DNA of 23,605 nucleotides from assembly GCA_040905425.1 (NCBI GenBank), contig JBBDRO010000076.1, forward strand, positions 1 to 23,605, written 5' to 3'. The notes below the pieces were generated by a model. That model worked only from the letters and a program-made list of their open reading frames with translations. It searched no databases and was not told the origin of the DNA. A program made the position numbers and the translations under genes. Shown here in pieces: positions 16,275 through 23,605 of the stretch. This DNA comes from Gemmatimonadota bacterium. GTDB taxonomy: Bacteria; Gemmatimonadota; Gemmatimonadetes; Longimicrobiales; RSA9. Each line of letters opens with the position of its first letter. The stretch's first letter is position 1.

Positions 16275-16498
16275 ATGATCACCGGCCAGGAGCAATCCGA
16301 CGAGGCAACTTGATCCTGCTGGACGAGCTGTCGAACGACCTGGACGTGGACACGCTCCGCGCCCTGGGGGACGCGCTGCTGGAGTTCGCCGGCTGCGCCG
16401 TGGTCATCTCCCACGACCGCTGGTTCCGGGACCGTATTGCCACCCACATCCTGGCCTTCGAGGGAGACAGCCAGGTGCGCTGGTTCGAAGGAAATTAT
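16275..16498 (+). pseudogene. ettA: Fragment of the ABC-F translational throttle EttA (second ABC domain), internally deleted and decayed
   Basis: MITGQEQSD joined out of frame to [21 protein letters not shown]...[32 protein letters not shown]. Confidence 0.88.
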
Positions 16499-16573
16499 CT
16501 GCCGGCCCGCAATGCGCGTGATTCTCCCTCATCCGGATATCCCGCCGGGCCGCGCTGGGCGGCGCCGCTTTCA

Positions 16574-16602
16574 TTGACACGGCGGGAGCCAGCCTCTACC
16601 GT
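16574..16602 (+). promoter_or_regulatory. sigma70 promoter, predicted start site at the GTG of the leader ORF
   Basis: TTGACA(16574)-17bp-TACCGT(16597); GTG16609 is 7 nt past the -10 end and has no SD. Confidence 0.7.
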
Positions 16603-16608
16603 TCGATT

Positions 16609-16944
16609 GTGACCCCTCATTCCAAGTACGTGGTTCTGCGGATATTCGCCGCAGTCATGGTCCTGCAGTTTGCGGCCGTGGGCACGGCCGTTGCCGTGCT
16701 GGACGCCGGCGCGCAGCGCGAGGGCACGACGGTCGAGGATCTGCACGACGGCTGCGGCTGTGTGCGGGCCCATGACCACACCATCTGCACCCAGGTAGCC
16801 GCAAATCGGATCCTCCACCCCCAGCCGCCACGCCAGGTGGCCGGGATCACGACGAGGGTTCCACCGACCTCTCGCTTTCGCGGCAACCCCGTCCTCCGCC
16901 GCGTTCCCGCGGCCCCCCGCTCCAGGGCACCACCCCGGGCCTGA
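16609..16944 (+). CDS. DUF2946/CruR-like leader peptide with a His/Cys cluster and a C-terminal RAPP arrest motif
   Basis: N-terminal hydrophobic segment; [15 protein letters not shown]; Pro/Arg-rich linker; ends ...PRSRAPPRA*; precedes metal import genes. Confidence 0.75.
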
Positions 16945-17038
16945 GCGCGCTCCGCGCAATCGCTTCATCCGTTGCAGTAGCGCGGGGTCACGAAGACGCC
17001 GCGCGCTCGGCTCTGTCACACCCCCCCCGTGAGGAGTT
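16939..17038 (+). promoter_or_regulatory. Structured intergenic RNA with alternative stems, one occluding the SD of the next gene
   Basis: 16943-16950 pairs with 17001-17008; competing hairpin 16980-16989/16995-17004; 17009-17019 pairs with 17029-17038 covering GAGGAG. Confidence 0.55.
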
Positions 17039-17042
17039 GGAA

Positions 17043-18380
17043 TTGTCCCTACATGGCTCCGTCCGGGCCGCGCCGCTGGCGCTGCTCGCGACCGTATTCC
17101 TGTATGCGCCGCCCCTGGCGGCCCAGGAAACCCCGGACTCAGTCCGGGTCGAGATGGCGCGTCTTCGTGCGCGTCTGGACAGTCTGGAGATCCTGGTCCG
17201 CCGGCTCCAAGCCGAGGGTCGTGAGCCGGAGGCACAGGACGCGCTGGCCCGGCTCAGGGAGGCGGCGGCCGCCGCCGCTGGTAGCGCGCGCGCGGACAGC
17301 GCTGCCGGCGCTGACGCCGCCGCGCCCGTCTCCGCGAGCCGGCAGCGCTCGCTCCAGGCGCTGAACCCGGAGATCAGCATCAACGCCGACATACTCGGCC
17401 ATCTGGATCCGGACAATGCCAACGGCAACAATTTCATCCCGCGAGAGTTCGAGTTCAGCTTCCAGTCGGCGCTCGACCCCTATTCGCGGGCCAAGATCTT
17501 CCTGGCCCATCACACGCACGGGCCGGAACTCGTTGCCTTCCCGGAGGAGGAGGGGGGGGAGGAGGAGGAAGGCGGGCTCGAGATCGAGGAAGGATATGTG
17601 GAGTGGGTCGGGCTTCCGGCCGGCGTCGGTCTGAAGCTGGGCAAGTTCTTCCAGCGCTTCGGAGCGCTCAACCGGTGGCATGAACACGCCCTGCCGTTTC
17701 AGAACCGATCGCTGCCGCACCAGGCATTCATCGGAGAGGAGGGCCTGTCCCAGGCCGGCGCCTCCTTGAACTGGATCCTTCCGGTGCACGGGCTCGGCGC
17801 CTATGACGCCACGGTGGAGGTGACGCGCAGCTCGAACGAACCGCTTTTCGGTACGAACAACGAACTGAGCTACCTGGGCCATTTGAACGGCTTCTGGGAG
17901 CTGGGCGCGGCCAGCGACGTGGATCTGGGGGTGAGCTGGTTGCATGGCCGCTATGAGGATGACGTGGTGGCCATGGACCGCGACCTTGTCGGAGTGGAGG
18001 CGGCGTACACCTGGCGGCCGCCGGCCCGGTCCCGGTACCGGGAACTGGTCGTGCGGGGCGGGGCCACCGTGCTGGACGGGCTGGTTCCGGACGAGGCCGC
18101 GGCCGCCGACGACCGCGCGGTGGGACTGTGGTCCCTGGCGGAGTTGCGTCTCAACCAGCGTTGGCTGGTCGGGGGTCGCGTGGACCGGGTCGAGAATCCC
18201 CTGGACACGAGCGAGTCGGCATGGCTGGCGTCCACCACCCTGACGTGGTGGCAGAGCGAATACGTGCGGCTCCGCCTGGAGTACGATCTCCTGGGCCGGA
18301 GCTTCATGGAGGACGACGACGGCCGGCTGTGGTTCCAGGTGACGTTCGCCATGGGGCCCCACAAGCACGAGACTTACTGA
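17043..18380 (+). CDS. Outer-membrane beta-barrel (porin/receptor-like) of a metal-uptake operon
   Basis: GAGGAG-6nt-TTG17043; signal peptide, coiled coil, LNPEIS, EIEEGY, GKFFQRFGALNRWHEH, SEYVRLRLEY, His-containing tail GPHKHETY. Confidence 0.8.
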   Translation: MSLHGSVRAAPLALLATVFLYAPPLAAQETPDSVRVEMARLRARLDSLEILVRRLQAEGREPEAQDALARLREAAAAAAGSARADSAAGADAAAPVSASRQRSLQALNPEISINADILGHLDPDNANGNNFIPREFEFSFQSALDPYSRAKIFLAHHTHGPELVAFPEEEGGEEEEGGLEIEEGYVEWVGLPAGVGLKLGKFFQRFGALNRWHEHALPFQNRSLPHQAFIGEEGLSQAGASLNWILPVHGLGAYDATVEVTRSSNEPLFGTNNELSYLGHLNGFWELGAASDVDLGVSWLHGRYEDDVVAMDRDLVGVEAAYTWRPPARSRYRELVVRGGATVLDGLVPDEAAAADDRAVGLWSLAELRLNQRWLVGGRVDRVENPLDTSESAWLASTTLTWWQSEYVRLRLEYDLLGRSFMEDDDGRLWFQVTFAMGPHKHETY

Positions 18381-18408: not shown

Positions 18409-19446
18409 ATGTTGACCTATCTGGCACTGGCGGCGGCAGTCCTGGGCTCCGGACCGGCTCCGCGCCCCACTCCGATCGCCGCGCCCCTCCGCGTGGTGGC
18501 CACCCTGCCCGTCTACGCTGATCTGGCGCGCAAGATCGGCGGGGCGGAGGTGGACGCGATGACCATCGCCAATCCCAACGAGGACGCCCATTTCGTCCGG
18601 CCCAAGCCGAGTTTTGCCCTGGAACTCAGGCGCGCGGACCTGTTCATCACCACCGGCCTGGACCTGGAGTTGTGGGCACCCACGCTCCTCGATCGCGCGG
18701 GCAACAACGCCGTCATGGAGGGCGGCCGCGGCTACGTCACCGCTTACACGGGCGTCCACCTTCTGGACATCCCCGCCTCGGCGGACCGCGGCCAGGGCGA
18801 TGTCCACATCTACGGCAACCCCCACCTCACTACGGACCCGCTGCGGACCCTCCAGATCGCACGCAACATCGCCGCGGGTCTGAAGCGCGTGGCGCCGGAC
18901 CGCGCCGCCGTCTTCGACGCCGGCCTGGACCGTCTCACCCAGCAGATGCACGAGCGGCTCTTCGGCGCGCGCCTGGTGCAGATGCTCGGCGGCTCCACCC
19001 TCGAGCAGATGGCACTCAAGGGTACGCTCGTGGGCTTCCTGGAGAACCAGGAATTTGAGGGGCGGAAACTCTCCACCTACCTGGGCGGCTGGCTTGGGAC
19101 AGGGCGGGCGTTTTGGGGCAGGGAGATCATCTGCTATCACAAGAACTGGGCTTACTTCGAGGAGCGCTTCGGCGTGACCTGCGCGGAGTACGTCGAGGCC
19201 AAGCCCGGCATCCCTCCCACCCCCGGACACGTCTCGCACCTCATCGACCGTATGAAGAACGAGGGGCTGAACGTGCTGCTGGCCGCCAGTTACTTCGATC
19301 GGAACAAGGTCGAAACGGTGGCCCGGCGTGGCGGCGCCACGGCCGTCATCGTGCCGCTTGCGCCCGGAGCGGGGAGTGCGGAGGACTACTTTGCGCTCGT
19401 CGATGCGTGGGTGGGCGGCCTGGCGCGGGCCTTCGCGAACAATTGA
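18409..19446 (+). CDS. ZnuA/TroA-family metal ABC substrate-binding protein
   Basis: VVATLP, EDAHF, GLDLE.W, GNPH...DP, YHKNW.YF, EAKPGIPPTPGH; AGGAG RBS. Confidence 0.92.
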   Translation: MLTYLALAAAVLGSGPAPRPTPIAAPLRVVATLPVYADLARKIGGAEVDAMTIANPNEDAHFVRPKPSFALELRRADLFITTGLDLELWAPTLLDRAGNNAVMEGGRGYVTAYTGVHLLDIPASADRGQGDVHIYGNPHLTTDPLRTLQIARNIAAGLKRVAPDRAAVFDAGLDRLTQQMHERLFGARLVQMLGGSTLEQMALKGTLVGFLENQEFEGRKLSTYLGGWLGTGRAFWGREIICYHKNWAYFEERFGVTCAEYVEAKPGIPPTPGHVSHLIDRMKNEGLNVLLAASYFDRNKVETVARRGGATAVIVPLAPGAGSAEDYFALVDAWVGGLARAFANN

Positions 19447-19470: not shown

Positions 19471-20340
19471 ATGCTGGACCTGATGATCCCACCCATCGTT
19501 GCGGCGCTCGTGATCCTGTCGGTGCACGCTTATCTGGGACTGCACGTCATAGCCCGTGAAGTGATCTTCGTGGACCTGGCGTTCGCGCAGATCGCCGCCA
19601 TGGGAACCACGGTGGGGCTGCTCTTCGGGATCGAGGTGGGAAGTCCGCTTTCGCTCCTGGGGGCGTTCGCGTTCACGCTGGTGGGGGCGCTGCTCTTCAG
19701 TTTCACGCGGCTGGAGGACTCCCCGGTGCCCCAGGAGGCCATGATTGGCATCACGTACGTGGTGGCCTCCGCGGCCGTGATCCTGATCGCGGGCTACACC
19801 GCGGAGGGCGCGGAGCACATCAAGGAGACCCTCACGGGCACGCTCATCTGGGTGAGCTGGCCCACGATCGGCAAGATGGCGGGGGCGTACTTCGCGGTGG
19901 CGGTTTTCCACTGGGTCTTCCGGCGCCAGCTCCTGGCCGTCACCTTCGCCCCGGAGCGGGTCCGGCGGCTCCGCCTTTGGGATTTCCTCTTTTACGTGTC
20001 CTTCGGTGTGGCCATCAGCTTCTCCGTGGAGGTGGCCGGCGTGCTCATGGTGTTCAGCACCCTGGTCATCCCCGCCGTGGTGGCGTTCCTGTACACCGAC
20101 CGCCTTGGCACGGCGCTCCTGCTGGCCTGGGTCGCGGGTGCCGTGGCCATTGTGGGGGGGATCGCCGCCTCCTTCGCCTGGGACGTGGCCACTGGCCCCC
20201 TCCTGGTATGCGCCTTCGGGGTGCTCCTGGTGGCGGCCTTCGGCGTACGGCCGCTGCTCGGCGTGCGCACAGGACGGAAGGTGCGGGTGGCGCTCCTGGA
20301 GGAAGACCCGGCCCCCGCGGAGGAGCCGACGCCGGCATAG
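19471..20340 (+). CDS. ZnuB/MntB-family (ABC-3) metal permease
   Basis: YLGLHVIAREVIFVDLAFAQIAAMG, EAMIGITY, GVLMVFSTLVIPA, TGPLLV. Confidence 0.92.
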   Translation: MLDLMIPPIVAALVILSVHAYLGLHVIAREVIFVDLAFAQIAAMGTTVGLLFGIEVGSPLSLLGAFAFTLVGALLFSFTRLEDSPVPQEAMIGITYVVASAAVILIAGYTAEGAEHIKETLTGTLIWVSWPTIGKMAGAYFAVAVFHWVFRRQLLAVTFAPERVRRLRLWDFLFYVSFGVAISFSVEVAGVLMVFSTLVIPAVVAFLYTDRLGTALLLAWVAGAVAIVGGIAASFAWDVATGPLLVCAFGVLLVAAFGVRPLLGVRTGRKVRVALLEEDPAPAEEPTPA

Positions 20341-20387: not shown

Positions 20388-20546
20388 ATGCGCAAGCTGT
20401 TTAGCCTGATAGGAGCGATGGTGGGCGGGTGGTTGGGGTGGTATCTCGGAGCGCCGGTTTCGGTCTTCGCCGCCTTTGTCGTGAGTATGCTCGGGACGGG
20501 GGTGGGGCTGTACCTGGGCAATCGGTTGGCGACGCGCTATTCGTAG
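20388..20546 (+). CDS. Small 2-TM glycine-rich membrane protein (52 aa)
   Basis: Strong RBS AAAGGAGGAGG at 20371; MRKLFSLIGAMVGGWLGWYLG...GTGVGLYLG. Confidence 0.75.
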   Translation: MRKLFSLIGAMVGGWLGWYLGAPVSVFAAFVVSMLGTGVGLYLGNRLATRYS

Positions 20547-20822: not shown

Positions 20823-21053
20823 CTTGAGGCGGTCCCGACCGGGGAGACGTTCCGCTCGCACACGCTGCGGCTTACCGCGGACCAGAACCCCGCCAACATG
20901 GGCCTGCTCCTGGCCCTGGGCCACGCCACCGATGTGGATTCGTCGGCCTGGGAGGAGAGCTTCATCCCGATGCAGCTGGCGGAGCGCGTGCGGCACTTGA
21001 CGGCGCTGGGCTGGTTCGCCACGGAGCCGGAGAGCCCCGGCGCCCGTGCCTGA
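20823..21053 (+). pseudogene. 5'-truncated gene of unknown function upstream of the ABC exporter
   Basis: Frame LEAVPTGETFRSHTLRL...WEESFIPMQLAERVRHLTALGWF...* begins just after the ori-like end; its stop lies within the first codons of the ATPase. Confidence 0.6.
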
Positions 21054-21933
21054 GCCAGCGGAGCGGAGCCGTCAGCCCCTGATCGAGGTCCGCGACCTCC
21101 GCTTCACCTACCACCGCGCGGCGGAACCGGCGGTCCGGGGCCTGGATTTCGACGTCGAGCGGGGCGAGATCTTCGGCTTTCTCGGGCCGAACGGCGCCGG
21201 CAAGTCCACCACGCAGAAGATCCTCATCGGTCTGCTGCGCGAATTCGCAGGCCGGGTCACGGTGCTCGGGTCCCCACTCCCCGAGTGGGGCGCCGACTTC
21301 TACGAGCACATCGGCGTGGCGTTCGAGTTCCCGAACCACTATCTGAAGCTGACCGGGCTCGAGAACCTGGCTTATTTCCGGGCGCTCTACAGCCAGGGCA
21401 CGCTCGAGCCGGCGGACCTCCTGCAGCAGGTCGATCTGGCCGGTGACGGGGCCACGCTCGTGTCGCAGTACTCGAAGGGGATGAAGACCAGGCTCAGCGT
21501 CGCGCGCGCCCTGCTCAACGATCCGGAGCTGCTGTTCCTCGATGAACCCACCACGGGGCTCGACCCGGTGAGTGCACGCCGGATCAAGCAGCTGATCCGG
21601 GAGCAGCGGGACGGCGGGAAGACCGTGTTCCTGACCACGCACGACATGGCAGTGGCCGATGAGCTCTGCGATCGCGTCGCGTTCATTGTCGACGGCGGGA
21701 TCACCCTCATCGACACGCCCCGCAACCTCAAGCTCGAGTACGGCGATCCCCGGGTCCGCGTCGAGGTTGTCGAAGGCGGGCACACCGAGCGCCGGGAGTT
21801 CCCGCTTGTCGGTCTGGGGGAGAACGCCGATTTCCTCGAGGCGGTCCGGCACCCCGGCCTCCAGACCATCCACACGCTCGAGGCCTCGCTCGAGGACATT
21901 TTCGTACAGGTCACGGGACGGGCCCTGGCATGA
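21046..21933 (+). CDS. ABC exporter ATP-binding protein (Rv2688c-like)
   Basis: GPNGAGKST, YSKGM, LFLDEPTTGLDP, LTTH, SLEDIF. Confidence 0.93.
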   Translation: MPEPAERSRQPLIEVRDLRFTYHRAAEPAVRGLDFDVERGEIFGFLGPNGAGKSTTQKILIGLLREFAGRVTVLGSPLPEWGADFYEHIGVAFEFPNHYLKLTGLENLAYFRALYSQGTLEPADLLQQVDLAGDGATLVSQYSKGMKTRLSVARALLNDPELLFLDEPTTGLDPVSARRIKQLIREQRDGGKTVFLTTHDMAVADELCDRVAFIVDGGITLIDTPRNLKLEYGDPRVRVEVVEGGHTERREFPLVGLGENADFLEAVRHPGLQTIHTLEASLEDIFVQVTGRALA

Positions 21934-22634
21934 GCCGCCTCGTGGCGACGATCCAGTGCGACGTCCGGCTCCAACTCCGGAACGGGTTCTACTCGGCCGT
22001 GGCATTCCTGCTCGCCGTCATGCTGGTGGTATTTTCGCAGCTCCCGCCCTTCGACTGGGCGCCCGTGCTGCCGCCGCTCGTGCTCAGCAACCTGGTCACG
22101 GCCACGTTCTTCTTCATGGCCGGGCTGGTGCTGCTGGAGAAGAGGGAAGGAACGCTCGCGGCCCAGGTGGTCACGCCGCTCCGGGTCGGTGACTACCTGG
22201 CCTCGAAGATCGTGACACTCACGGCGCTCTCGCTGGCCGAGCACCTGGTCATCGCGCTCATCACGACAGGTACGTCGTTCCGCCCGCTGCCGCTGGTCAT
22301 GGGCGTCGTGCTCGCATCCGCCCTGTACTGCCTGACCGGCTTTGCGGCTGTGGTGCGCTACGACTCGATCAACGAGATGATGTTCCCGACCATCGTCTGG
22401 GTGACGCTCTTCGCGCTGCCGATCCTCCACTACGCCGGTCTCTGGCACTCACCGTTCATGTACCTCCACCCGTTCCAGGCGCCACTCGTGATCCTGAAAG
22501 GCGCCGTGGCTCCGCTCCGGGCGTGGGAGTGGCTCTACGGCTTCGGGTACTCCGCCCTCTGGATCGGAGCCGCCTGGGCGTGGTGCCAGTATGCGTTCCA
22601 GCGGTTCGTGGTGGCGGCGGCCGGAGCGCGGTGA
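21930..22634 (+). CDS. ABC exporter permease (Rv2687c-like, fluoroquinolone-export family)
   Basis: DVRLQLRNGFY, LLEKREGTL, VTPLR..DYLASK; ATGA coupling. Confidence 0.85.
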   Translation: MSRLVATIQCDVRLQLRNGFYSAVAFLLAVMLVVFSQLPPFDWAPVLPPLVLSNLVTATFFFMAGLVLLEKREGTLAAQVVTPLRVGDYLASKIVTLTALSLAEHLVIALITTGTSFRPLPLVMGVVLASALYCLTGFAAVVRYDSINEMMFPTIVWVTLFALPILHYAGLWHSPFMYLHPFQAPLVILKGAVAPLRAWEWLYGFGYSALWIGAAWAWCQYAFQRFVVAAAGAR

Positions 22635-22635
22635 G

Positions 22636-23370
22636 ATGAACGCCACCCGCGTGCTCCGGGCCCTGGGCCCCATCGACGCCGCGAACATCCGGCGGGATCC
22701 GCTCCTGCGTTGGATGTTCGCGATGCCGCTCCTGTTCGCGTTGCTGTTCCGCTGGGTCGCGGCGGTTGCACGGGACTGGCTGGCCGGCTTCGGCGTGGAC
22801 CTGGCCGCGTATGCGCCGCTGATCTCGAGCGGCATCGTCCTGATCGCGCCCATGCTGTACGGCGTCGTGATCGGCTTCCTGCTGCTGGACGAGAAGGACG
22901 ACCAGACGCTCACGGCCTTGCGGGTCACACCGCTAACGGGGCGTGGCTACATCACCTACCGGATCGCGATCCCCATGGCGTTGAGCGTTCTGATGACGCC
23001 CGTGGCGCTGGCGTTGGGCGGGTTCTCGGACCTGGGCGTGGGCGCGCAGCTTCTCGCGGGCGTCGCGGCGGCGCCGCTGGCTCCGGCCTTTGCGCTGATG
23101 ATGGCCGCGTTCGCGCGGAACAAGGTGCAGGGATTCGCACTGATGAAGGCGTCCGGCATCATCAACTGGCCGCCGCTCATTGCCTGGTTCGTGGATTCGA
23201 ACTGGCAGCTCGCGCTGGGCATCTGCCCGACGTACTGGCCGGTCAGGTTCTACTGGGCGCTCGAAGCGGGCGCTGCCGGGGCCTGGATCTGGTTCGTGGT
23301 CGGAACCCTGTACCTGGCCGTCGTGATCCTGCTGCTGCTCAGGCGTTTCGAACGGGTGGTGGACCGGTAG
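22636..23370 (+). CDS. ABC exporter permease (Rv2686c-like)
   Basis: LGPIDAANIRRDPLL, GFLLLDEKDDQTLTALRVTP, ARNKVQGFALMK, PTYWP. Confidence 0.87.
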   Translation: MNATRVLRALGPIDAANIRRDPLLRWMFAMPLLFALLFRWVAAVARDWLAGFGVDLAAYAPLISSGIVLIAPMLYGVVIGFLLLDEKDDQTLTALRVTPLTGRGYITYRIAIPMALSVLMTPVALALGGFSDLGVGAQLLAGVAAAPLAPAFALMMAAFARNKVQGFALMKASGIINWPPLIAWFVDSNWQLALGICPTYWPVRFYWALEAGAAGAWIWFVVGTLYLAVVILLLLRRFERVVDR

Positions 23371-23424
23371 CTCAGTAGCTCACATCCCGGGTGACGGTCC
23401 CTCCGGCAGTTCGACGCGGTACTC

Positions 23425-23605
23425 CTGGACGTGGACACGCTCCGCGCCCTGGAGGACGCGCTGCTGGAATTTGCCGGCTGTACCGTGGTCATCTCATACG
23501 ACCGCTGGTTCCTGGACCGCATTGCCACCCACATCCTGGCCCTCGAGGGGGACAGCCAGGTGCGCTGGTTCGAGGGCAACTACCAGGAGTACGAGGAGGA
23601 CCGGC
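23425..23605 (+). pseudogene. ettA: Second ettA 3' fragment (runs off the window)
   Basis: [60 protein letters not shown]; 144/159 nt identical to 16340-16498; in-frame TGA upstream at 23392; H-loop His changed to Tyr. Confidence 0.88.

Follow-up and report, generated by a model that had tools for sequence, protein, structure and literature searches.

A putative metal-sensing arrest peptide of the CruR/DUF2946 kind ahead of a porin-ZnuA-ZnuB operon in Gemmatimonadota

In the 23,605-nucleotide (nt) contig JBBDRO010000076.1 of a Gemmatimonadota bacterium (assembly GCA_040905425.1), the whole of which is called the window here, a 111-codon open reading frame (ORF) on the forward strand precedes three genes encoding a porin-fold barrel, a ZnuA-family binding protein and a ZnuB-like permease. 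This leader is probably a regulatory upstream ORF (uORF) of the CruR/DUF2946 kind, i.e. a co-translational metal sensor that would control the operon behind it by ribosome arrest at a C-terminal Arg-Ala-Pro-Pro (RAPP) motif. Sequence comparison shows the leader family with its invariant residues, the 45-residue ruler, the geometry of the promoter, homology to leaders of the DUF2946 type and what the downstream genes encode; that the nascent chain is exported and arrested at RAPP, which metal it responds to, in which direction regulation runs and how arrest is coupled to expression are all features that we infer. A leader of this type had been proposed in a first-pass annotation made from the letters of the window alone, whose coordinates for the promoter, ORF, cluster, RAPP, stop and intergenic gap all match the sequence and whose reading is supported wherever it is open to a test on sequence. 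The parts of the leader are as follows.

16609..16944, forward strand: leader ORF, a candidate CruR/DUF2946-like arrest peptide of 111 amino acids (aa) starting at GTG 16609 (sequence, synteny and profile comparison)
16624..16713, forward strand: predicted hydrophobic N-terminal export or anchor segment, residues ~6-35, with K6 and R11 preceding (hydropathy)
16735..16788, forward strand: candidate metal-binding cluster E43-x2-H46-x4-C51-x3-H55-D56-H57-x2-C60, plus the non-conserved C49 (residue counts in the family)
16789..16923, forward strand: 45-residue spacer, a putative molecular ruler, kept in length and not in sequence
16924..16935, forward strand: candidate RAPP arrest motif, R106-A-P-P109, with R, P and P invariant
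16942..16944, forward strand: TGA stop codon, two codons (Arg-Ala) after RAPP

Conservation of the leader family

The leader family was found through synteny, with the 445-aa barrel protein encoded downstream as the query, and then by profile search. The barrel was matched in 16 of 41 related genomes, and in 12 of these 16 primary loci an ORF of 109-118 aa with the same build lies just upstream, which is the architecture (RAPP-ending ORFs ahead of homologous operons) for which the first-pass annotation had proposed searching. No leader ORF was found upstream of the barrel in the other four (L007, L012, L014 and L016), of which L014 comes from the unpublished genome G016, and only its lack of a leader rests on that genome. 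Scanning a contig database with the barrel gave 22 loci, all in metagenome-assembled genomes of Gemmatimonadota (Longimicrobiales and Gemmatimonadales): 12 have the leader, four have less than 270 nt of upstream DNA and six (L031-L035 and L037) are without it, i.e. it is present in 12 of the 18 loci having enough upstream DNA. The start codons of leaders and porins were picked from sequence context throughout, and the loci are phylogenetically related, so that counts, as well as the permutation and Wilcoxon figures given below, overstate independence.

Conservation of the ORF, the cluster and RAPP at homologous loci, on which the first-pass annotation had staked its proposal, is seen in 21 distinct leaders, among which H55, C60, R106, P108 and P109 never vary and P29, H57 and A107 hardly do, at a mean column identity of only 35%. 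The position of RAPP two codons before the stop, singled out in the window, recurs in 20 of the 21, and either RAPP or RSPP is present in all of them. Because the invariant Arg of the motif is encoded by five different codons across the loci (AGG, AGA, CGC, CGA and CGG, representing both codon families), selection acts on the leader protein.

A profile of the 21 leaders, run against 1.84 billion representative proteins, matched 537 representative clusters at E ≤ 1e-3 and 240 at E ≤ 1e-10, with lengths of ~110 aa in almost every case; the named members of the ten clusters that were looked up are all annotated 'hypothetical protein'. Among the best 150 representatives, 146 carry R[AGS]PP (RAPP in 141, RGPP in 3 and RSPP in 2, with none in 4), and 143 carry either HDHxxC (133) or HNHxxC (10). 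The family consensus around the cluster reads E-x2-H-x4-C-x3-H-D-H-x2-C-T-Q-x-G-A-N, and its conserved core consists of E43, H46, C51, H55, D56, H57 and C60, all of which are carried by the window leader; in the 139 representatives defined by HDH/HNH-x2-C, the cluster positions were counted as E in 112, H in 117 and C in 109. The first-pass annotation had described three His and three Cys without CxxC, H46-x2-C49-x-C51-x3-H55-x-H57-x2-C60 at 16744-16788. The cluster is indeed conserved, but C49 is specific to the lineage of the window and has to be taken out of it.

The distance from C60 to R106 is 45 residues in the window and in 19 of the 21 loci (46 in the other two), and among the 139 representatives it is 45 in 124, 44 in 9 and 46 in 6. 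Residues 61-105 are thus poorly conserved in sequence and fixed in length. The tail after the motif likewise has two residues in 124 of the 146 motif-bearing representatives. Out of 301 sampled Gemmatimonadota genomes, 53 match the family at E ≤ 1e-5, a count that includes weaker CxxC-type relatives.

Is the leader a genuine gene? Long chance ORFs are common at the G+C content of the window (68%); a chance ORF is, however, ruled out for the leader by its conservation and by the synonymous variation at invariant residues. The first ~60 codons are coding-like (GC of ~0.8-0.9 at third and ~0.4-0.5 at second positions), and codon-position GC is flat in the Pro/Arg-rich tail. An ORF on the opposite strand (16495-17235) was considered and rejected, having no family match and a codon-position GC that favours the forward frame. 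The N-terminus, which the first-pass annotation had called export-like, is hydrophobic over residues ~6-35, where Kyte-Doolittle 19-mer means reach 2.26, and this segment is kept in the family alignment, ending in a conserved P-x-L-D/E motif. A paralogue search of the window's own genome revealed no second copy, scans of the leader protein against Pfam and NCBIfam gave no match, and querying a word-indexed protein search with the leader recovered nothing beyond the 95-aa gene call of the window itself. All 21 leaders stop at TGA, compared with 79 of 107 neighbouring long ORFs (the loci not being independent), and this uniformity may reflect RNA-structure constraints or RF2-specific termination.

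A probable leaderless start

16574..16579, forward strand: -35 hexamer TTGACA (TTGACN occupies this position in 11 of 21 orthologous loci)
16597..16602, forward strand: -10 hexamer TACCGT, after a 17-nt spacer, ending 6 nt before GTG 16609 and implying a leaderless transcript

The geometry by which the first-pass annotation had placed the promoter directly on the GTG holds well beyond the window. A TTGACN-17/18-TAnnnT pattern ending 5-9 nt before the start codon occurs in 11 of the 21 orthologous loci, and when 241,690 positions on both strands of the loci were examined, the pattern was met 11 times, at the same 11 sites and nowhere else. Among the other ten loci, L008 and L036 have only a good -10 element and L003 has a Shine-Dalgarno (SD) sequence. 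Comparison thus lends good support to a leaderless start at GTG 16609. A simple consensus promoter scan lists no promoter at the leader because TACCGT matches TATAAT at only three of six positions; in a promoter and terminator scan the leader is not followed by a terminator, and the one site resembling a terminator (16552-16565) lies upstream of the -35 hexamer. The promoter spacers are dissimilar among loci and no shared operator is visible in them.

Relation to DUF2946-type leaders

Judging from sequence, the leader family is likely to be homologous to DUF2946-type leaders (Pfam PF11162, with a gathering score of 23.7 bits). Sub-threshold DUF2946 hits are found in six of 12 orthologues, the best with an E-value of 0.012. 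A scan of 151 Gemmatimonadota genomes with PF11162 uncovered CxxC-type leaders, four of them above the cut-off, and hhalign aligned the leader family with six Gemmatimonadota CxxC leaders, three of which (L048, L049 and L050) pass the Pfam cut-off, at a probability of 96.1% and an E-value of 3.5e-9 over 62 columns. The strongest link is the identical 45-residue spacing. In DUF2946 the distance of 45 residues from CXXC to RAPP is conserved and five added residues impair copper control, and RAPP mutations in a DUF2946 uORF abolish downstream expression (PMC9426467). The comparison with DUF2946 that the first-pass annotation had suggested comes out divided: formal membership fails at the cut-off, as detailed below, whereas homology is borne out by the hhalign match, the weak Pfam hits and the 45-residue ruler.

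CXXC itself is absent from the window leader, which has H57-T-I-C60 in its place, and the family shows no second Cys three residues on. By the 45-residue ruler, H57-x-x-C60 replaces C-x-x-C, whereas hhalign pairs C60 with the first Cys; because the two disagree, the register of the cluster is uncertain by three residues.

Among characterised systems, CruR of Bordetella pertussis (Bp2923; Roy et al. 2022, PMC9426467) comes closest. Like the leader, it is a small first gene of its operon, in which a metal-ligand motif is followed by a 45-residue spacer and by RAPP a few residues before the stop, and its N-terminal export signal has a predicted counterpart in the leader; it too has a long structured intergenic region and a C-rich tract inside the uORF, and the metal-uptake system behind it likewise counts an outer-membrane protein among its parts. 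The two differ in that the leader has H-x-H-x2-C with an extra upstream His and Cys where CruR has CXXC, is ~110 aa long compared with 145, places two instead of three residues after RAPP and, unlike CruR, has a predicted leaderless promoter. The genes behind the leader, for a porin and a zinc-type importer of the ATP-binding cassette (ABC) class, are not copper genes and are not among the DUF2946 partners listed in that paper, nor is Gemmatimonadota among the phyla it names for DUF2946 (PMC9426467).

CutF of Rhodobacter capsulatus (Ozturk et al.; 10.1101/2025.02.05.636593) is also a DUF2946-type exported nascent chain with periplasmic metal sensing. There, however, metal induces stalling at a PPP run and switches on a detoxifying oxidase, whereas the leader has RAPP and precedes an importer, for which the opposite sign would be expected. 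The small ORFs surveyed by Fujiwara et al. 2025 (PMC12992588) belong to the same class, encoding secretory or membrane proteins with C-terminal RAPP or RGPP upstream of metal genes, and the source list of that survey holds one partial member of the HDHTIC family, located before a TonB-dependent receptor. Finally, ApdA, ApdP and SecM have a RAPP (or RAGP) core as the leader does, and show what is proposed for it, arrest at Pro-Pro in a small exported protein encoded upstream of a regulated gene; they differ by monitoring Sec/YidC, preceding sec genes and having neither a metal-ligand cluster nor a fixed ruler.

A model for metal-dependent arrest

How could such a leader work? Transcription from a constitutive promoter would set in at GTG 16609 or right beside it, and translation of this mRNA would start leaderless. 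The hydrophobic N-terminus would bring the nascent chain to the Sec translocon, with its C-terminal part facing the periplasm, and the ribosome would arrest at R106-A-P-P109, its P site holding Pro108 and its A site Pro109. At this point the 45-residue spacer would span the exit tunnel and the translocon, because of which the cluster H46/C51/H55/H57/C60 would have just emerged on the periplasmic side. Its occupancy by metal, most likely Zn(II), would then set the duration of the arrest. For an importer operon the logic of CruR, which also serves uptake, is to be expected by analogy: arrest and expression would last without metal, and metal binding and folding would pull the chain, release the arrest and shut expression off. 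The stalled ribosome would keep the porin-ZnuA-ZnuB operon on by either or both of two routes, one in which an RNA structure starting 2 nt after the Pro codons is held open and another in which a C-rich tract is covered from Rho. After release, termination would follow three codons on at TGA and the operon would be shut down.

A bolder version of this proposal is offered tentatively and has, in our view, distinctly less than an even chance of being right. The leader could represent the first zinc-responsive nascent-chain sensor, a His-rich offshoot of CruR/DUF2946 in which the ruler puts the H/C/H/H/C site at the periplasmic mouth of the translocon during arrest, and in which the Pro-Pro codons (CCN-CCN, often CCUCC) double as an anti-SD arm that silences the next gene, all of this from a leaderless mRNA and with no transcriptional regulator. 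If true, one short mRNA stretch would encode both the brake and the switch, and zinc would gain a form of post-transcriptional control not found from riboswitches (a point raised in PMC9426467).

The downstream operon and the metal

17031..17045, forward strand: SD sequence GAGGAG (17031-17036) and likely porin start codon TTG 17043
17043..18380, forward strand: outer-membrane porin-fold barrel with an N-terminal coiled coil (AlphaFold model, Foldseek)
18409..19446, forward strand: cluster A-I metal-binding protein of the ZnuA family (PF01297, 6.6e-40)
19471..20340, forward strand: ABC-3 metal permease, ZnuB/AztB-like (PF00950, 5.4e-25)

The stop codon of the leader is separated from TTG 17043 by 98 nt, and the leader-porin gap ranges from 60 to 130 nt across loci. 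The three-gene porin-ZnuA-ZnuB operon behind the leader is conserved across loci, and the barrel-ZnuA-ZnuB order read by the first-pass annotation is upheld by Pfam for the ZnuA/ABC-3 pair and by Foldseek for the barrel. The barrel protein belongs to no Pfam or NCBIfam family in the scans made and has no Plug domain; a model built from 19 orthologues (predicted local distance difference test 79.6) shows ~16 strands behind a coiled-coil N-terminus and is matched by porins, both general and specific (OmpM1, MOMP, OprB and OprO/OprP), at E-values of ~1e-10 to 1e-11, so that the product of 17043-18380 is predicted to have a general porin fold. The best named model for the binding protein is the zinc protein AztC (E 2.8e-22; 79.5 bits against a cut-off of 350) and that for the permease is AztB (E 2.1e-17; 63.7 bits against a cut-off of 280).

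In the binding protein, H61, H133, H139, H244 and H274 are invariant among 12 orthologues, and His61 and His244 align with the His residues at the first and third ligand positions of the closest solved chain, 5kzj. Cluster A-I proteins with His at the third ligand position are of the zinc type, whereas Glu at this position marks the Mn/Fe type. Three of the invariant His (61, 139 and 244) presumably occupy the canonical ligand positions, which would make the window protein, with His at the third, one of the zinc type. Taken together with the Azt-type best matches for all ABC parts, the invariant His suggest that the sensed metal is probably zinc.

The genome has no ABC-3 permease other than that at 19471-20340, the single match in the whole assembly. 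The operon ends after it in the window and in eight other leader-carrying loci, with no ATPase gene within. The closest genomic ATPase (G000:C111:28650-29336) scores best as a heme/siderophore type, and in L088, a distant orthologous operon, an AztA-like ATPase gene lies between those for the binding protein and the permease. Loci L086-L089 are also grouped with the CxxC-type-leader loci that head homologous porin-ZnuA-ZnuB operons. Considering all HDHxxC-leader loci that have ~1.5 kb of downstream DNA, the barrel follows the leader in 14 of 16.

Possible routes from arrest to operon expression

16937..17013, forward strand: strong predicted hairpin, whose 5' base lies 2 nt after the Pro-Pro codons, which includes the stop codon and is not followed by a U tract
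16858..16935, forward strand: C-rich, G-poor tract (C/G 2.69 over 78 nt), possibly a Rho-loading region by analogy to cruR

Toeprints of RAPP stalling in CruR and in ApdA/ApdP place the two Pro codons in the P and A sites, CruR having been arrested in this way in vitro, and RAPP supports arrest in several unrelated contexts (PMC12992588). By analogy, a stall in the window would be expected with the P site on CCA 16930-16932 and the A site on CCC 16933-16935. The footprint of a ribosome reaches ~+15 nt from the stall. A ribosome stalled at RAPP would consequently cover the stop codon of the leader and might hold the base of the 16937-17013 hairpin open.

What would this opening achieve? In CutF, the stalled ribosome unmasks a ribosome-binding site (RBS) (10.1101/2025.02.05.636593), and folding calculations predict a comparable arrangement, i.e. 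SD unmasking, in nine of 20 orthologues of the leader locus, the window not being one of them. The RAPP-coding segment, often with CCUCC, pairs with the porin SD in many orthologues; the duplex between this segment and the porin RBS has a mean of -21.6 kcal/mol for cognate pairs against -18.0 kcal/mol for non-cognate ones, and none of 20,000 permutations reaches the cognate mean. In calculations made on shortened leader fragments, a footprint at the stall site makes opening the RBS cheaper by 2 kcal/mol or more in 9 of 20 loci, compared with 0 of 20 for a footprint placed 45 nt upstream (Wilcoxon p 0.0009).

For the route via Rho, the precedent is the rut 'C>G bubble' mapped in cruR (PMC9426467). 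The 78-nt window of the leader with the highest C/G ratio (2.69) is centred 47 nt before the end of the leader stop codon, and in 16 of 20 loci the window where C exceeds G the most is situated 2-96 nt upstream of the stop codon of the leader. Over the second half of the leader, C/G averages 1.42 in 20 loci and is 1.9 in the window.

Points against and alternative explanations

Several observations weigh against an arrest uORF of the CruR kind that senses zinc, or at least against some of its parts. The window leader has no DUF2946 hit at E ≤ 0.1, a whole-genome scan is likewise without a DUF2946 match, and none of 99 family representatives reaches the cut-off (the best scores 17.4 bits, aligned end to end). 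The barrel operon can do without such a leader, as is the case in seven of the nine closer homologous leader-lacking loci (L007, L031-L035 and L037). All Azt matches stay below the NCBIfam equivalog cut-offs, and a cognate ATPase could not be assigned elsewhere in the genome, in which 39 ABC ATPases were found. As for the coupling, the cost of opening the window RBS is the same with or without a stalled ribosome (11.6 vs 11.3 kcal/mol) and the window RAPP/SD duplex ranks 19th of 20, among the weakest, for which reasons SD unmasking is not supported in the window. In the stalled-state fold the freed 3' arm of the hairpin pairs with the SD instead, and folding predictions give no clear switch for this locus. 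The C-rich tract is only compatible with the Rho route, because Pro, Ala and Arg codons produce the same skew. The metal is also put in question, since in other families of Gemmatimonadota (L074, L078, L079 and L080) homologous porin-ZnuA-ZnuB operons are headed by leaders of the CxxC type, because of which the change from Cys to His need not by itself mean a different cargo or metal. In published source data, CxxC/RAPP uORFs precede proteins of the same database name (PMC12992588), and CxxC is the copper hallmark in CruR (PMC9426467). Moreover, leaders with HDHxxC are occasionally followed by a gene for a TonB-dependent receptor (L066) or for an outer-membrane efflux protein (L067). The sign of regulation therefore cannot be the same throughout the family, and an efflux partner implies the opposite sign in some members.

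These points bear directly on the question of whether the same CruR-like arrest uORF might sense copper or another transition metal (Ni, Co, Mn or Fe) that is imported by the porin, binding protein and permease, which we consider unlikely, although of the alternatives it is the one to be taken most seriously. Sites made of His and Cys bind copper well, and sister lineages head the same operon with CxxC leaders, but 143 of the 150 best representatives have His where CxxC has its first Cys. While the shortfall of the Azt matches leaves room for another metal, every ABC part still finds its best named model among the zinc Azt proteins, the binding protein has three invariant His at the canonical ligand positions, like cluster A-I proteins of the zinc type, and we know of no copper-specific cluster A-I binding protein. 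The experimental record pulls the other way, in that the characterised relatives CruR and CutF all sense copper (PMC9426467; 10.1101/2025.02.05.636593).

It is improbable, more so than a change of metal, that the product of the ORF is a small functional protein that binds metal, either in the periplasm or anchored to the membrane, e.g. a chaperone for the binding protein or the porin, in which RAPP would only slow synthesis without any regulatory effect. The conserved metal-type cluster, the predicted export signal and the co-location with transport genes would all suit such a protein, and CutF was itself first proposed to be a copper chaperone (PMC9426467). Residues 61-105, however, being unconserved in sequence and fixed in length, fit a ruler and not a fold, and RAPP, here invariant and placed exactly two codons ahead of the stop, is a sequence that proteomes strongly avoid outside arrest peptides (PMC12992588); in addition, the RNA that encodes RAPP co-varies with the downstream RBS. 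Least probable of all would be a secretion monitor of the SecM/ApdA/ApdP type, in which Sec-dependent pulling alone releases the arrest and the leader reports on translocon capacity instead of metal. RAPP near the C-terminus of a small exported protein is just what ApdA and ApdP display (PMC7897499; PMC10987492), yet the genes downstream encode a porin and a metal ABC importer rather than sec or yidC, and an invariant His/Cys cluster at a fixed distance from RAPP would have no role there.

Novelty and implications

The class of RAPP uORFs as such is already in print, with CruR (Roy et al. 2022; PMC9426467), CutF (Ozturk 2023, 2025) and a survey of RAPP/RGPP ORFs (Fujiwara et al. 2025; PMC12992588). 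The partners named in the main text of that survey are TonB-dependent receptors, YcnI, PCuAC and PepSY; this main text mentions neither zinc nor a His-rich family or motif, contains no ruler in such a family and lists no ABC-importer partner (PMC12992588). No zinc-responsive RAPP uORF was found in the literature, the word zinc occurring nowhere in four papers on CruR and CutF. A published description of the His-rich family, its ruler, its leaderless promoter or its link to porin-ZnuAB was not found either, with the source tables of PMC12992588 covered only in part, such that further rows may exist.

Experiments have demonstrated regulation by a metal-sensing nascent chain for copper alone, in CruR and CutF. 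An arrest uORF of the kind proposed here would extend it to a different set of ligands and probably to zinc, and would also bring in ABC importers that have their own porin and a phylum that has been little studied. The occurrence of CxxC-type and HxHxxC-type leaders on homologous operons amounts to a natural experiment, in which swaps of the motif could show how ligand chemistry sets metal specificity in co-translational sensing. The exact spacing of 45 residues, common to families with almost no other shared sequence, in turn constrains, in quantitative terms, how the effect of force or folding is passed from the translocon to the peptidyl-transferase centre.

Other features of the window

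Just after znuB, a 52-aa ORF (20388-20546) encodes a glycine-rich, hydrophobic product that resembles small membrane proteins and has no family match. It is followed on the same strand by an ABC-2 type ATPase and two permeases (FLQE3_permease family) at 21046-23370, a neighbourhood not conserved in other loci; a paper on the Caulobacter Zur regulon lists an ABC-2 system, znuGHI, as Zur-regulated (PMC4176598).

The start of the contig (17-361) carries four copies of a conserved unit of ~40 nt, spaced by 87, 104 and 90 nt; aligned over 64 nt, the copies are 70-83% identical to the reference copy. Their irregularity and divergence are too great for a typical CRISPR array.

Two direct repeats of 159 nt (16339-16497 and 23424-23582), 91% identical and 7085 nt apart, flank the segment with the leader, the porin, znuA, znuB and the ABC-2 transporter. 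Both correspond to the 3' part of ettA (residues ~463-535 of a 556-position model). A full-length ettA, at the end of another contig (C111:2-1606), is broken off at the very residue where the window contig ends. The repeats could be the remnant of an insertion or recombination at the 3' end of ettA, or could mark a break of the assembly at a repeat.

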